A stretch of 64,000 bases of DNA from Blastocatellia bacterium (lineage in GTDB: Bacteria > Acidobacteriota > Blastocatellia > UBA7656 > JADIYM01): NCBI GenBank assembly GCA_021463145.1, contig JAJTWZ010000010.1, positions 6,766 through 70,765 on the forward strand, written 5' to 3'. How positions within the stretch are numbered: the stretch's first letter is position 1; every line of letters begins with the position of its first letter. The translations under genes were made by a program, and so were the position numbers. Below the pieces are notes generated by a model. That model was given only the letters and a program-made list of their open reading frames with translations, had not been told where the DNA came from and made no database searches. Below, in pieces: positions 24,128 through 30,008 of this stretch.

Positions 24128-24931
24128 TCAGTTGATCAGCAGATCCTTGGCCGTTTCGGGTGTGATCGTCAGCCGGCGGAGGACGATGCCGGTGTTGTCC
24201 GGAAAACGGGCGTTTTGACCGTTGATCTGCAATGCGATCGCGCGCGTGTTGCCGATGCTCAGGTCCACGGATTCGGTCGCGCGAATCATGGCTTCCTCTC
24301 CAATCTGCAGTTCCTTCTGCACCGGCTCGCCATTATCCGCGGTGTACTTCACCCAGCAGGTGTCTAGCGCCTTTAGCGTCACACGAATCTCTCCGTCGAC
24401 GACTTCAGGTTGGATTGAGACAGGCGATCCGCCCGGCGCCGCCGACGGTTCGGGATTGGGCTCGGCTTTGGGATTCTGCGACGGCCTGGTCACGGGCGCG
24501 ACCGCCGCAGGCTGCTGCGAGTATCTCCAGACGGCGTAAGCTCCGCCGATGAACACGACGGCGAGCAATCCCGCCACGATTGCGGCCGGCCAGAACCCGG
24601 CCGACGGCTCCTTGAACACGAACGGTTCGGCGTCGTCGAGCGGTGGCACGTCGGGATCGCAGACGGCGGCCTCTGCCCCCGTTTGCTGCTGATAGAGCGA
24701 CACGGCCTCGTCCTCGTCCATCTTGACGTACCTTGCGAACGCCTTGACGAACGATCGAGCATAAATGCCTTCGGGAAGGACACCGAACTCGTCGGCCTCG
24801 ATCGCTTTCAGGAAGCGAGTGCCGATCCGGGTGGATTCCGCGATTTCCGTCAGCGACAGGCCCAGTGCCTCGCGCCGACGCTTCAGTTCTTGTCCGAGCA
24901 TATTCAACGCCTCGACCGGAACGTCGGCCAT
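24128..24931 (-). CDS. rodZ: RodZ-like cytoskeleton protein (helix-turn-helix, transmembrane segment and C-terminal DUF4115-like domain)
   Basis: The N-terminus is an XRE-type helix-turn-helix (LGQELKRRREALGLSLTEIAESTRIGTRFLKAIEADEFGVLP). A single transmembrane helix and a Pro-rich linker follow, then a C-terminal beta-rich domain. Confidence 0.75.
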   Translation of the reverse strand: MADVPVEALNMLGQELKRRREALGLSLTEIAESTRIGTRFLKAIEADEFGVLPEGIYARSFVKAFARYVKMDEDEAVSLYQQQTGAEAAVCDPDVPPLDDAEPFVFKEPSAGFWPAAIVAGLLAVVFIGGAYAVWRYSQQPAAVAPVTRPSQNPKAEPNPEPSAAPGGSPVSIQPEVVDGEIRVTLKALDTCWVKYTADNGEPVQKELQIGEEAMIRATESVDLSIGNTRAIALQINGQNARFPDNTGIVLRRLTITPETAKDLLIN

Positions 24932-25158: not shown

Positions 25159-25545
25159 ATGGCTATGGAAGCGCTCGGAATGGTCGAGACCAAGGGCTTC
25201 GTCGGTGCGGTCGAAGCCGCCGATGCGATGGTCAAGGCCGCGAACGTGATCCTCATCGGCAAGGAATACATCGGGTCGGGCTACGTGACCGTATTCGTTC
25301 GCGGTGACGTCGGTGCGGTAAAGGCCGCGACCGACGCCGGTGCGGCCGCAGCTCGACGCGTGGGCGAGCTCGTGAGCGTTCACGTCATTCCGCGGCCCCA
25401 CGTCGAGGTCGAGCGAGCCCTGGCGGCGCGAGGCATAGCGGTTCCGGCACACCTGGGAGCCGGAGCGGACAGGGCGCAGTTGACGGGCGGTGACGGCAGC
25501 CACTCGCTTCCGTCGACCGGCGCCAAGGATCGCGAGAAGAAGTAA
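25159..25545 (+). CDS. Bacterial microcompartment shell protein, BMC-H (PduA/EutM/CcmK family)
   Basis: The BMC-domain signature ([81 protein letters not shown]) is followed by a C-terminal tail of about 40 aa. An AAGGAGA ribosome-binding site precedes the start. Confidence 0.9.
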
Positions 25546-25650
25546 CACTCCACGCCGCGGTGTCCGTGCCGCGTAGCGCCGATGCTAGAGCTCCGAATGC
25601 GCGTGACGCACCGGGGCTCTTGTTCACCTGGCTGGGAAAGTGAGCCGCTA

Positions 25651-27366
25651 ATGCCGAACGACAAGGATCTCGAGTCGGTCCAGCAAGCGCGAAATCTCGT
25701 CGATGCGGCGCACGAGGCGCAGCAGCGCCTCGCCGGATTCGACCAGGCACGGATCGATCGCATTTGCGAGGCCATGTCAGCCGCCGGTCTCGCCGAGGCC
25801 GAGCGCCTCGGACTGCTTGCGCACGAGGAGACGGGATTCGGTATCCCGTCCGACAAGACCGTGAAGAACACGTTCGCGGCCGGCGACGTGCACGCATTCT
25901 TCAAGCCGATGCGGACGGTAGGGATCATCAGGCAGACCGAGACAATTCTGGAGATCGGGTCGCCGCGCGGCGTCGTGGCCGCCATCATCCCTTCCACGAA
26001 TCCGACGTCCACGGCAATCTTCAAGTGCCTGATCTCGATCAAGTCGCGAAACGGTGTGGTGTTGAGCCCGCATCCGAGTGCGGCTCGCTGCATCGCCGAG
26101 AGTGTCCGGATCATGTCCGAAGCCGCGGTCGCCGCAGGCGCGCCTCCCGGAATCATCGGGTGTATGACCGTTGCGACCGTTGAAGGCACCGAAGCGCTGA
26201 TGAAGCACAAGCGCACGGCAGTCATCCTCGCGACCGGCGGAATCGGACTCGTGCGCGCCGCTTACAGTTCCGGCAAGCCTGCATTCGGAGTCGGTCCCGG
26301 CAACGTGCCTGCCTATGTCGACGGCTCCGCGGACGTAAGCAAGGCGGCGCGCGACATCCTGACCGGCACCTGCTTCGACAACGGGACGATTTGCGCCTCT
26401 GAGCAGTCTGTCGTTGCGGACAGAGCCGTCGACGGTGCCCTCAGGGCAGCTTTCGAGGATCACGGGGCGCGCTTCCTGACCGCCGATGAAGCAGAGAAGC
26501 TGACCAGGGTCGTCGCGACTGGCACGAATGCGCTCAACCCGAAGGTCGTAGGGAAGCCCGCCAGGGTTATCGCGGAGATGGCCGGCATATCGTTGCCCGA
26601 CGGTGTCCGCTGCATGATCGCGGAGGTCGCGGGAGTCGGTCGCGACTATCCGCTCTCGATGGAGAAGCTCTCTCCGATCCTCACTTACTACACTGTCGAC
26701 GGGACGGCCGACGGCGTCGAGCTCTGCCAGAAAGTATTGCAATATGGCGGGATGGGCCATACCGCTTCGATCCATTCGCGCAAGCGGGATGTGATCGAGT
26801 TTTACGGCGAGCGCATCCCCGCGTCGCGAGTCATCGTGAACTCTCCGTCCACACACGGCGCCATCGGCTTCTCGACGGATCTGGAGCCGAGCATGACGCT
26901 GGGGTGCGGAAGCTGGGGTGGCAACGTTACGTCGGACAACATCTCGCCCTGGCACCTGATGGACATCAAGCGCATCGCGTTCGAGACGCGCGAGGTCGTT
27001 CCGAATGCCGCGCCGAAACCCGTGGCCAAGCGACCGGCCGCGACGTCGATTTCGCCGGCCCTCGCGGCGGCGCCGATCGAACGTGCCGACATCGCATCGC
27101 TCGTCGACCGCTTCATCGCCGAGCGCCGCAGCGAGGCTCCGCCGGCAGAGCCGGCACCGGCCGCGGCGCCCGCGGCTGCACCGGCCGCGACGTCGGAGCC
27201 AGCGCCCCCCGCACTGGCACCGGGACCTGCGTCCGAGTTCGTCTGCGAGGACGACGTCCGCCGCGCCATCAACGAGGGCCGCAAGATTCCGATCGATGCA
27301 AAGACCATCATCACGCCGGCTGCCCGTGAGCTCGGCGACGCGCGCGACGTCTTCGCGCGCCGGTAG
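25651..27366 (+). CDS. CoA-acylating aldehyde dehydrogenase (PduP/EutE-like) with a C-terminal Ala/Pro-rich linker and an encapsulation-peptide-like helix
   Basis: The aldehyde dehydrogenase core spans residues about 1-460 ([31 protein letters not shown]...CASEQS...GCGSWGGN). A linker of about 70 aa follows ([23 protein letters not shown]...[32 protein letters not shown]), then an amphipathic segment ([31 protein letters not shown]). The start is the ATG at 25651; the track ORF begins at 25582. Confidence 0.88.
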
Positions 27367-27375
27367 GAACCGCTC

Positions 27376-27711
27376 ATGTTTCTCGGGCACGTCGTCGGCA
27401 CCGTCTGGTCCACCAAGAAGACCCCGAACCTCGAGGGCATCAAGTTCCTCATCGTGCACCCGTACAACCTCAACAAGGAGCCGGGCACGGACATCGTCGT
27501 CGTGGCCGATCGTCTTGGCGCCGGCATCGGCGAAACGGTGATCTGCGCCTACGGGAAGGCGGCCCGTTCGGCGATCGGCGATCAGGATATGTCGATCGAA
27601 GCGGCTGTCGTCGGAATCGTCGACAGAATGGATCTTCAGGACTGCGGCTCGGACGATACCGTCGAAGCGGCGCGCCGCCTTCGGTCCGCGGGCGAGGGAG
27701 GCGCTGTCTGA
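27376..27711 (+). CDS. Bacterial microcompartment vertex protein, BMC-P (EutN/PduN/CcmL family)
   Basis: The sequence matches the EutN/CcmL pattern throughout (MFLGHVVGTVWSTKKTPNLEGIKFLIVHP...VVVADRLGAGIGETVICAYGKAARSAIGD...AAVVGIVD). It starts 9 nt after the aldehyde dehydrogenase stop. Confidence 0.88.
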   Translation: MFLGHVVGTVWSTKKTPNLEGIKFLIVHPYNLNKEPGTDIVVVADRLGAGIGETVICAYGKAARSAIGDQDMSIEAAVVGIVDRMDLQDCGSDDTVEAARRLRSAGEGGAV

Positions 27712-28673
27712 TGGCGAAGCGACGAACGACTGCTCCGCTCACCTCGGACGAACTGCAGGAACACCTGGTCGACATCTCTCCAGACGAGGTGCTCGAGCGG
27801 TTCGACGAGATTTTCGGACGGGACATCGATCTTCCGGAATCCCTTGAAGAGCTCTTGTCGCTCGACGACTACGTCGACTCGGAGTTGCGGGAGATGTTCC
27901 AGTCGATCATTGCTCAATATATGCGGCCGATCGAGTATGCGATCGAGCAGATTGGCGCCGGCGAGGCGACGCGGCGGACGGCCGAGGAAGCGGTCGAGGC
28001 GCTTCGTCCCATACGCGAGGCCTCCGAGTCGCTCGAGTACGACGACATCACGGAGATCCTCATCCGGATCGAGCAGCCGCTCGCCGAGTTTGCGAACGGC
28101 ACGAAGCGGAAGCTCATCAAGCGTGACATCACTGAGTTGAACGACGCCTGGAAACAGCTCGGCATGCTCCTCAGGCGCGAGTCCGATCGCGACGCGTCGC
28201 TGCCGACCTTGCTCTCGCTTGGAGGGCTGCCGCGCTACCTCGACGGCGTGACGACGGCACAGGTTCGCAGCCTGCGTGCGGCGGGCATAACGTCGCTCAA
28301 CGATCTCGCGGACGCGCCGGTCGAAGACATCATGGCCGTCGCCGGGCTGTCGCGCACGAGCGCCGAGCGGATCAGGGCCTTCTCGGCGGGGTCGGTGTCG
28401 GTCGCGGCGGCGGAGAATCGCGTCGGCTCGTCGGGGAAGCTTCCCGACGGCTGGATGCGCCTCGACATCGAGAGCGACACATTCCGCGGGCGAATCACCT
28501 TCGAGTACGCATCGATCGCGAAGTACCTCGAGCCGATCCTTGCGAAGCTCTCCGAAGACGGAAAGAAATCCCGCGTCGCGAAGCCGAAGTCCCGTCGAAC
28601 GACGAAGCCGCTCGTTTCGCAGCCCAAGCCCGCGCCGCGCGCGAAGCGCAGTCCCAGGAAAGCCACGACATGA
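27711..28673 (+). CDS. Hypothetical protein in the BMC operon: acidic helical N-terminus, helix-hairpin-helix-like motif and strongly basic C-terminal tail
   Basis: The 320 aa ORF is coupled to the BMC-P gene by a TGATG overlap. A helix-hairpin-helix-like segment is LRAAGITSLNDLADAPVEDIMAVAGLSRTSAERI. The tail is Lys/Arg/Pro-rich (KKSRVAKPKSRRTTKPLVSQPKPAPRAKRSPRKATT). No family was recognised. Confidence 0.6.
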   Translation: MAKRRTTAPLTSDELQEHLVDISPDEVLERFDEIFGRDIDLPESLEELLSLDDYVDSELREMFQSIIAQYMRPIEYAIEQIGAGEATRRTAEEAVEALRPIREASESLEYDDITEILIRIEQPLAEFANGTKRKLIKRDITELNDAWKQLGMLLRRESDRDASLPTLLSLGGLPRYLDGVTTAQVRSLRAAGITSLNDLADAPVEDIMAVAGLSRTSAERIRAFSAGSVSVAAAENRVGSSGKLPDGWMRLDIESDTFRGRITFEYASIAKYLEPILAKLSEDGKKSRVAKPKSRRTTKPLVSQPKPAPRAKRSPRKATT

Positions 28674-29122
28674 CCGAAGAGCAGATCATCTACGAGATCA
28701 CGAAGGCCGTCTTCAACCGCCTCGGCACGTCCGTCGAGCGATCGACGGTCGAGGATCTCGTCGCCGACGTGTATCGCGCGGTGCGACCTGCGGTGGCGGC
28801 CGGACCGGGCGCCGCCGCCGCTGCTGCGCCGCGCGACGAACGCGGTTCGCAGGATCGCGTGATCATCTCGGTCTTCGGGCTCGACCGGCCAGGCATCGTG
28901 TCGGCCGTGAGCTCGGTGCTTGCCGACGCCGACTGTTCGATCGTCGACATCAACCAGACGGTGGTGGGCGGGAAGTTCGCGATGGTGCTCGTGGCCGACA
29001 GCCGCCGTTCGACAACGGGCGTGGCCGAACTGAAGGACCGGTTCCGCGAGGCCGGACAGCGGCTCGGTGTGAACATCTACGCCCAGCGGGAAGACCTCTT
29101 CATCGCGATGCACCGCGTCTGA
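28670..29122 (+). CDS. ACT-domain protein with an N-terminal amphipathic-helix extension and Ala/Pro/Gly linker (possible BMC cargo or regulator)
   Basis: The ACT-like fold spans RVIISVFGLDRPGIVSAVSSVLADADCSIVDINQTVVGGKFAMVLVADS. The N-terminus has amphipathic helices (EEQIIYEITKAVFNRLG, VEDLVADVYRAV) followed by a linker (PAVAAGPGAAAAAAP). The gene is coupled to the upstream gene by an ATGA overlap. Confidence 0.65.
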   Translation: MTEEQIIYEITKAVFNRLGTSVERSTVEDLVADVYRAVRPAVAAGPGAAAAAAPRDERGSQDRVIISVFGLDRPGIVSAVSSVLADADCSIVDINQTVVGGKFAMVLVADSRRSTTGVAELKDRFREAGQRLGVNIYAQREDLFIAMHRV

Positions 29123-29296: not shown

Positions 29297-29581
29297 TTGG
29301 AAACCGTCAACATCGCGCAGCTCAAGAGCGAACTGAGTCGATATCTCTCGCTGGTGCGTGCCGGATCGGAGGTCATTGTCCGCGATCGCAATATTCCGGT
29401 GGCAATGCTCGTGCCGATCGATCTCGAGGACCTGACCTTGGAAGACATTGCCTTGGTAGCCTCGGGACGTCTGCGCCCACCCCGGTCGAAGCTGTCGAGC
29501 GATTTCTGGCGACGAACTCGCCCGAGCGTGAACATCGAGGATCTTGACCGTGCCATCGAAGCGGATCGCGAGGATCGCTGA
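29297..29581 (+). CDS. Type II antitoxin, Phd/YefM family
   Basis: The 94 aa protein has an N-terminus (VNIAQLKSELSRYLSLVRAGSEVIVRDRNIPVAMLVPID) matching the Phd/YefM fold pattern. It uses a TTG start and overlaps the downstream PIN-domain gene. Confidence 0.7.
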   Translation: METVNIAQLKSELSRYLSLVRAGSEVIVRDRNIPVAMLVPIDLEDLTLEDIALVASGRLRPPRSKLSSDFWRRTRPSVNIEDLDRAIEADREDR

Positions 29582-30008
29582 ACACGCGTTCTGGGACGCG
29601 AGCGCGGTTGCGCCACTGTGCATTCGGCAGCCTGCATCGGCAGACTCGCGCGTCCTTGCCCGGCGATACGGCATCGTGGCCTGGTGGGGCACACCCGTGG
29701 AGGTCACCAGCGCGGTCGCTAGACTCGCGCGTGAAGGCGTGCTCGATGTGGTGTCGGCTTCGAAGGCACTCGACGTACTTGACGCCCTCGAGCAATCGTG
29801 GCTCGAGGTTGTTCCGAGTGACGAAATCCGGGACGTGTCGCGACAATTGTTAAGGGCCTACTCGCTGCGGGCGGCGGACTCGCTGCAACTTGCGGCGGGA
29901 CTCGTCTGGTCGAACTCGAAGCCGTCCGGACGGGTGTTCATCTGCAGGGACAACCGGCTTGCTGATGCGGCCACGGCAATCGGCTTCGACGTTCGGCGGC
30001 CCAGTTGA
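29550..30008 (+). CDS. vapC: Type II toxin, PIN-domain ribonuclease (VapC family)
   Basis: The protein is about 150 aa with PIN-like acidic positions (FWDASAV...; ...DSLQLAAGL...). It overlaps the antitoxin gene. The start is ambiguous between a TTG at 29544 and a GTG at 29550. Confidence 0.65.
   Translation: MPSKRIARIAEHAFWDASAVAPLCIRQPASADSRVLARRYGIVAWWGTPVEVTSAVARLAREGVLDVVSASKALDVLDALEQSWLEVVPSDEIRDVSRQLLRAYSLRAADSLQLAAGLVWSNSKPSGRVFICRDNRLADAATAIGFDVRRPS

Follow-up and report, generated by a model that had tools for sequence, protein, structure and literature searches.

The stretch of DNA analysed here (64,000 nucleotides of a Blastocatellia bacterium, assembly GCA_021463145.1, contig JAJTWZ010000010.1, positions 6,766 to 70,765 of the forward strand; hereafter the window) carries a tightly coupled bacterial microcompartment (BMC) operon in the order BMC-H, aldehyde dehydrogenase (AldDH), BMC-P, HhH protein and, as its last gene, one that encodes a 150-residue ACT-domain protein (28670..29122, forward strand). 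Our reading, which we hold at a probability of roughly 60%, is that this protein is a tagged small subunit, whose N-terminal hairpin acts as an encapsulation module taking a DUF711 protein into an ACI-type compartment while its ACT domain keeps the role it has in its family. The account is built on the observed architecture of the protein, its family membership, its synteny and the link between its N-terminal extension and shell genes; encapsulation, a complex between the ACT protein and DUF711, and ligand binding are what we infer. The gene itself was already on record as an accessory of a known type of locus; we add a family assignment and the description of a BMC-specific tethered hairpin.

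The same open reading frame and the same layout of helix, flexible linker and ACT domain that the initial annotation had proposed were recovered, the protein sequence being identical to the one it quoted. The gene's ATG shares the sequence ATGA with the stop codon of the gene before it, and an AGGA motif stands in front of this start. The C-terminal ACT domain (residues 61-150; 28850..29119, forward strand) belongs over its full length to the UPF0237/PRK00194 family: residues 64-136 give a Pfam ACT_6 match (E = 1.7e-15), residues 62-150 cover positions 2-90 of the 90 in the NCBIfam model PRK00194/NF001220 with 89.4 bits, the curated cut-off being 74 bits, and the G-x-D-x-P-G-I-V loop between beta1 and alpha1 is conserved. 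An AlphaFold2 model, computed from a 16-sequence alignment with a mean predicted local distance difference test score (pLDDT) of 84.8, has, at residues 63-148, the beta-alpha-beta-beta-alpha-beta ACT fold with a C-terminal helix. The best Foldseek match in the PDB was 1zpv (template-modelling score, TM, 0.87 on the target; root-mean-square deviation, rmsd, 1.5 A; 36% identity), which phmmer also retrieved with E = 2e-9. Since the Foldseek alignment, about 82 columns long, is confined to the ACT part, the N-terminal region is separate from the ACT fold, as the predicted structure likewise indicates. Among 5.8 billion proteins searched, 3991 homologues were found, and the best 120 of these are nearly all full-length, with about 145-166 residues, apart from two partial matches (130 and 161 residues).

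What had been annotated as a single N-terminal amphipathic helix is predicted to be a hairpin of two helices, about 40 residues in all. Helix 1 (residues 3-18, EEQIIYEITKAVFNRL; 28676..28723, forward strand; pLDDT about 89) forms the first arm and is a candidate encapsulation peptide (EP) helix, and helix 2 (residues 24-43, RSTVEDLVADVYRAVRPAVA; 28739..28798, forward strand) forms a strongly amphipathic second arm, the two helices together (16 and 20 residues) being modelled at a pLDDT of about 88. The amphipathic character claimed for the region holds for helix 2, with a hydrophobic moment of 0.68 over residues 26-39 that is reached by about 0.5% of shuffled sequences. An Ala/Gly/Pro linker (residues 44-60; 28799..28849, forward strand) with pLDDT below 60, low conservation and variable length joins the hairpin to the ACT domain, and the modelled coil at residues 44-62 includes a segment of particularly low confidence (47-55, pLDDT below 50). 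Pfam found no family match in residues 1-45 at E values up to 10.

As a measure of conservation, the commonest residue has a mean frequency among 120 relatives of 0.79 in helix 1, 0.74 in helix 2, 0.40 in the linker and 0.81 in the ACT domain. In the 16-sequence alignment I7, Y8, I10, T11, A13, V14, R17, L18 and G19 are invariant, as are V27, E28, L30, V31, D33, Y35 and R36, and the length of the linker varies; across the 120 relatives it has 16-35 residues (11-36 in distant ones), rich in A, G, S and P. Ratios of nonsynonymous to synonymous substitution (dN/dS) within the clade of the window follow the same pattern, the hairpin having 0.08-0.19, the ACT domain 0.02-0.18 and the linker 0.3-0.8. 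Because the hairpin is conserved while the linker varies, the N-terminal extension is more than a product of chance. When 1.84 billion cluster representatives were searched with a profile, the matches included canonical proteins of about 90 residues that lack the hairpin, and also many distant proteins of 140-165 residues that align N-terminally to it and have the motif E..I..I.....LG..A....V...V in common, of which the part E..I..I.....LG is retained in distant phyla.

The genomic context of the extended form is equally constant. With each species represented by one genome, a relative turned up in 405 genomes, and our Acidobacterial synteny counts concern the best 80 of these, which are almost all Blastocatellia (a class that we take to be Acidobacteria subdivision 4), Pyrinomonadaceae or unclassified Acidobacteriota metagenome-assembled genomes, with few named otherwise. 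BMC-P lies immediately upstream of the ACT gene and on the same strand in all 75 loci with enough upstream DNA, and BMC-H, AldDH, BMC-P and ACT are colinear in every one of the 55 loci whose upstream DNA measures 4.5 kb or more. Downstream, DUF711 is found in 60 of the 63 loci that have over 2.5 kb of sequence on that side, the three exceptions belonging to the clade of the window (loci L001-L008, L171 and L172, in the labels of this analysis). In Pyrinomonadaceae a zinc-ribbon membrane protein comes next after ACT, then DUF711 (PF05167, E = 7e-183), sometimes a protein without assigned family, and a second BMC-H, so that the ACT-DUF711 pair has shell genes on both sides. DUF711 carries no terminal extension in BMC loci (454 and 454 residues, vs 452 in a control), as is expected of a piggybacked subunit. 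We also note that the zinc-ribbon protein (L023 8499..8999, and homologous positions in L009-L084) has its zinc ribbon at the N-terminus and a C-terminal hydrophobic segment that is apparently transmembrane.

As controls we used 80 metagenomic loci with the canonical 90-residue form. None of the 80 has BMC-H, BMC-P or a related AldDH within 5 kb, and none of their ACT genes bears a conserved N-terminal extension. DUF711 is their usual neighbour: of 61 loci, 59 have it downstream, and in 56 its start is no more than 400 bp away. An upstream BMC-P thus separates the two forms completely (75 of 75 extended vs 0 of 64 plain; Fisher p = 2e-39, uncorrected for phylogeny), and the extended gene, as the initial annotation had supposed, belongs to BMC loci rather than occurring mainly outside them. 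Because the Acidobacterial loci are interrelated, independent support comes from the recurrence of the arrangement in two phyla and from the records of the BMC catalog discussed below.

In the second phylum, Caldithrix abyssi (UPF0237 protein Cabys_2140) and related genomes have BMC-P, extended ACT, DUF711 and a CN-hydrolase in this order, and the BMC-P of the window is 70% identical to the ACT-adjacent BMC-P of Caldithrix, a similarity that suggests a BMC-P/ACT module shared or transferred between phyla. DUF711 follows ACT in a KSB1 genome, ACT lies close to AldDH with no DUF711 in a Chloroherpetonaceae genome, and in one further genome outside Acidobacteria the ACT gene has no related neighbours; altogether DUF711 adjoins the extended gene in four of six loci from other phyla. 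Two other features of these loci may be mentioned. In Calditrichota-type loci (L085 9688..12703, with equivalents in L088 and L090) biotin/lipoyl and biotin-carboxylase genes follow the CN-hydrolase. Two loci of other phyla (L086 10001..13494; L087 13343..13834) have a type II dehydroquinase gene close to the extended ACT gene, accompanied in L086 by a thioesterase and a 552-residue AldDH; this proximity may hint at the chemistry or may be coincidence.

The operon of the window is an ACI satellite locus, judged by a feature-by-feature comparison of gene content. In their BMC catalog, Sutter et al. 2021 (Nat Commun 12:3809, PMC8217296) describe the ACI type as confined to Acidobacteria, mostly subdivisions 4 and 6; its satellite locus encodes an AldDH that has an EP near its C-terminus and, after it, a domain of about 50 residues, together with BMC-P and/or BMC-H, and its main locus, located elsewhere in the genome, encodes a PF00596 aldolase with an EP at the C-terminus as well as a hydroxyacid dehydrogenase and a BMC-P triplet. 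The window agrees with the satellite in its class, Blastocatellia, in the EP and small domain of its AldDH and in having BMC-H as well as BMC-P flanking that enzyme; it differs in that the main locus is absent from the 64 kb and in that the catalog's text on ACI makes no mention of an ACT protein, a tag or DUF711. The same catalog nevertheless lists an ACT model, HMM01842act_1_acimic3, for ACI and MIC3 loci, and gives, as the sole typical non-shell protein of the FRAG4 type, a protein with a BMC-specific N-terminal domain and a C-terminal ACT domain (Supplementary Data 2). An ACT protein is therefore a recorded BMC component, contrary to the earlier statement that it was not a recognised one. 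The FRAG4 protein has the same order as that of the window, a BMC-specific N-terminal region and then an ACT domain of about 90 residues, and comes from Marinimicrobia, another phylum; the likeness of the two N-terminal regions is by description only. In FRAG types the known EP models find nothing, and their cargo is almost unidentified (Sutter et al. 2021).

Beyond the catalog, the literature we searched contains no paper text that joins 'ACT domain' with microcompartments or describes a targeting tag on an ACT protein, and nothing further on BMCs in Blastocatellia. Nor does it report a function for UPF0237 or for DUF711/UPF0210, a widespread family; DUF711/PF05167 is not mentioned in the catalog supplements searched, and a link of DUF711/UPF0210 to ACI or FRAG-type microcompartments is not found in the literature covered. 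Solved structures of the two neighbours exist in Streptococcus pneumoniae, where SP0238 (1zpv) represents UPF0237 and SP0239 represents DUF711/UPF0210. SP0238 is a stand-alone ACT protein of the same fold, with a DUF711 neighbour in most relatives; compared with this canonical form, the protein of the window has about 60 additional N-terminal residues, an operon with shell genes and no adjacent DUF711. ECOD groups DUF711 with the ten-stranded beta/alpha barrels, among ribonucleotide reductases and glycyl-radical enzymes (PMC4390871).

The closest functional parallel is offered by the small subunits EutC of ethanolamine ammonia-lyase and PduD of diol dehydratase, which bear an EP and on which untagged partners piggyback (PMC4594438). 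Like them, the ACT protein is a small subunit with an N-terminal helical tag and a poorly conserved linker, and DUF711 would be the presumed equivalent of their untagged large partners, EutB and PduC/E. The parallel has its limits: the tag of EutC and PduD is a single helix of about 18 residues, whereas the ACT protein has two conserved helices that form a hairpin of about 40, and EutC and PduD belong to known catalytic complexes, whereas the ACT module is of a ligand-binding type whose encapsulation is putative. An EP is defined as a short amphipathic helix with a poorly conserved linker that occurs only on BMC-associated homologues (PMC4594438). The linker of the ACT protein corresponds to that described for EPs (Kinney 2012, Aussignargues 2015), and so does the distribution of its extension, though some extended relatives in other phyla have no shell gene within 8-10 kb; the helix corresponds only partly, helix 2 being amphipathic and helix 1 not.

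We propose that the ACT protein is a microcompartment-adapted UPF0237 that would act as the small partner of DUF711/UPF0210. By analogy with other ACT proteins, its C-terminal domain would dimerise and bind a small ligand, and the conserved pairing of the genes suggests that it associates with DUF711. The hairpin, on its tether of 16-35 residues, would bind the shell or the cargo core as an encapsulation module, and the ACT protein, together with whatever DUF711 it binds, would thereby be located in the ACI-type microcompartment, much as EutC and PduD carry their untagged partners. Inside it, the ACT domain may retain its family role, presumably a ligand-dependent control; that the protein senses a ligand at all is suggested by its predicted ACT fold.

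Several observations weigh against this proposal. The extension differs from a classic EP, which is a single helix of 15-20 residues with weak conservation; here some 40 residues are conserved about as well as the ACT domain. The hydrophobic moment of helix 1, 0.36, does not exceed that of shuffled sequences (p = 0.25), and in a profile-profile comparison of the ACT N-terminus with the EP of AldDH from the same loci the best match, that of helix 2, was too weak to rely on (P = 0.09). The moment is a poor discriminator of EPs, however, because the AldDH tail helix at the position of the catalog EP scores only 0.07. Helix 1 resembles the N-terminal EPs of EutC, EutE and PduD, a likeness that we treat as a lead and not as a test. 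Three of the six contexts outside Acidobacteria have no shell gene within 8-10 kb, one of them (L086) having an AldDH; the phyla concerned have been reported to contain fragmented BMC loci. The clade of the window itself, finally, has ACT followed by MoaC, without DUF711, the zinc-ribbon gene or the second BMC-H, and neither DUF711 nor a relic of it was found, at E values up to 5, in the 64-kb window or in the L006-L008, L171 and L172 loci. The piggyback role is therefore unproven for the genome of the window. Both the hairpin and the ACT domain are under purifying selection in this clade, and the protein must therefore still be in use; its partner there would be either a DUF711 encoded elsewhere or another component of the lumen, such as AldDH.

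This last point leads to the view that the ACT protein is an encapsulated lumen regulator or sensor of the co-encoded AldDH, responding to a metabolite, much as the initial annotation had suggested. In the clade of the window AldDH is the only enzyme of the operon, DUF711 being absent, and the ACT domain is under strong purifying selection there; ACT and AldDH are colinear in all 55 Acidobacterial loci, and a Chloroherpetonaceae locus has ACT near AldDH with no DUF711. AldDH is not, however, the best-supported partner, since the neighbour of UPF0237/PRK00194 inside and outside BMC loci is DUF711/UPF0210: the plain form pairs with DUF711, and never with AldDH, in the 80 control loci, and loci of the Caldithrix type have BMC-P, ACT and DUF711 with no AldDH nearby. 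We know of no CoA-acylating AldDH regulated by an ACT domain, which we also count against this explanation, and we regard it as unlikely. The protein could instead be a multivalent scaffold that senses nothing, in which ACT domains oligomerise and tethered hairpins cross-link the shell, perhaps through the adjacent BMC-P, and the cargo during assembly. Such a role would fit its persistence without DUF711 in the clade of the window, the FRAG4 loci, where the ACT protein is the only typical non-shell protein, and the adjacency to one clade of BMC-P kept across two phyla at 70% identity; a tag, a long linker and an oligomerising domain also recall assembly adaptors such as CcmN (PMC4594438). Against it, the canonical G-x-D-x-P-G ligand loop is conserved together with the whole ACT domain as in the non-BMC relatives, and most BMC loci keep the pairing with DUF711; we think it rather unlikely that structure is all the protein provides.

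The association with microcompartments might also be a matter of synteny alone, a housekeeping ACT-DUF711 pair having come to lie beside BMC genes in Blastocatellia and its extension serving some other end, for instance docking to a membrane or a partner. The 80 Acidobacterial loci are phylogenetically related and their counts are not independent, and three of the six other contexts have no shell genes nearby. Yet the Pyrinomonadaceae pair is enclosed by shell genes on both sides, the adjacency of BMC-P and ACT recurs in a second phylum, the extension is missing from 80 of 80 non-BMC controls, and the catalog independently records ACT proteins in ACI, MIC3 and FRAG4 loci; mere coincidence is improbable. 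Last, the arrangement of two helices with a conserved Gly between them could be a DNA-binding domain of the ribbon-helix-helix type joined to a ligand-binding ACT domain, as in NikR, where a small N-terminal DNA-binding domain precedes an ACT-like one, and the protein would then regulate its own operon. One Foldseek match, at rank 43 and over 145 columns, was indeed to H. pylori NikR; its rmsd of 14.3 A means that it is no real superposition. Helix 1 begins at residue 3 and leaves no room for the N-terminal beta-strand that would read the DNA, the N-terminus is acidic and has no Pfam match in residues 1-45 at E = 10, a disordered linker of 16-35 residues is atypical of regulators of this type, and the extension tracks shell genes, the divergent RodZ-like gene with its helix-turn-helix (HTH) domain being the better candidate regulator. 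With the beta-strand absent and the only structural match so poor, we rejected the NikR-like reading, which is very improbable.

The remainder of the operon accords with its assignment to the ACI satellite type, and all its genes lie on the forward strand. It opens with the BMC-H hexamer shell gene (25159..25545; PF00936, 9.2e-29), followed by the BMC-type AldDH (25651..27366; PF00171), which has 571 residues when read from the Met at 25651. Its tail contains the EP helix of 18 residues (27076..27129), which lies between a linker and a Pro/Ala linker, and then a conserved C-terminal domain of 44 residues (27232..27363); the consensus of the tail is ISREEIAAIVDRFLA, later ...IITPAARD.... The 44-residue domain, strongly conserved over 67 loci, corresponds to the '~50aa domain of unknown function' of the catalog, and a Pfam search of these residues at E values up to 10 gave nothing useful. 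An alternative start codon (ATG at 25582) would give 594 residues; gene callers choose the Met at 25651 on identical contigs, and the 23 codons upstream of it (25582..25650, forward strand) are probably not translated. The BMC-P pentamer shell gene (EutN/CcmL; 27376..27711; PF03319, 7.8e-28) is next, and the gene of the HhH protein completes the operon before ACT. By tblastn the 64-kb window contains no other shell gene and no main ACI locus, and scans for promoters and terminators gave matches no more frequent than in shuffled sequences.

The HhH protein (27711..28673, forward strand; 320 residues, with an HHH_5 match) is lineage-specific; its gene is inserted between BMC-P and ACT, its start and stop overlap both neighbours, and it is translationally coupled to both. 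AlphaFold2 predicts a bundle of four helices, an (HhH)2-like region, a small beta-hairpin and a disordered tail that is basic and rich in Lys, Arg and Pro. A fold search gave no match at E below 0.05 and showed no more than a generic bundle of four helices and an HhH region like that of RadA, and Pfam searches of both halves at E values up to 10 yielded nothing useful. The family has only 35 members, and those with a source name are all called Blastocatellia; in the contexts of its relatives that were looked up the order is BMC-P, HhH, ACT. Most members of the clade of the window have the gene, L007 being without it. The protein could be a tether to DNA or the nucleoid, or a compartment scaffold.

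Two observations concern the borders of the operon. On the upstream side, the RodZ-like gene with HTH_25 and RodZ_C domains (24128..24931, reverse strand) is divergent from BMC-H and is found upstream of it in nearly all Acidobacterial loci that extend far enough on that side; it may be a regulator or merely a conserved neighbour. On the downstream side, between ACT and MoaC, the window has a Phd/YefM-type antitoxin gene (29297..29581, forward strand) and an overlapping 154-residue open reading frame (29544..30008, forward strand), which is probably the toxin of a Phd/PIN-like pair. The pair is missing at the same position in the closest loci (L005-L008, L171, L172), the window alone having the insertion, and it looks like a recent toxin-antitoxin insertion at the end of the operon.

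A wider and more tentative possibility is that BMC-P and the tagged ACT protein, together with DUF711 where it is present, constitute a portable satellite module that would bring a DUF711 enzyme into ACI and the enzyme-poor FRAG compartments of several phyla, in which the ACT protein would be at once an encapsulation adaptor and a gate for metabolites of the lumen. In the clade of the window it would have outlived the linked DUF711 and taken on an independent role, within or on the compartment, together with the HhH protein. For the window alone the gain is more modest, in that a catalogued accessory gene acquires a family and a probable role. The ACI type is confined to Acidobacteria, a dominant phylum of soils. 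If our proposal is correct, the function of DUF711 and the missing cargo enzyme of these compartments would become testable together, and the ACI locus would gain a candidate cargo enzyme, a candidate ligand-binding regulator within the compartment and a two-helix targeting module for BMC engineering.

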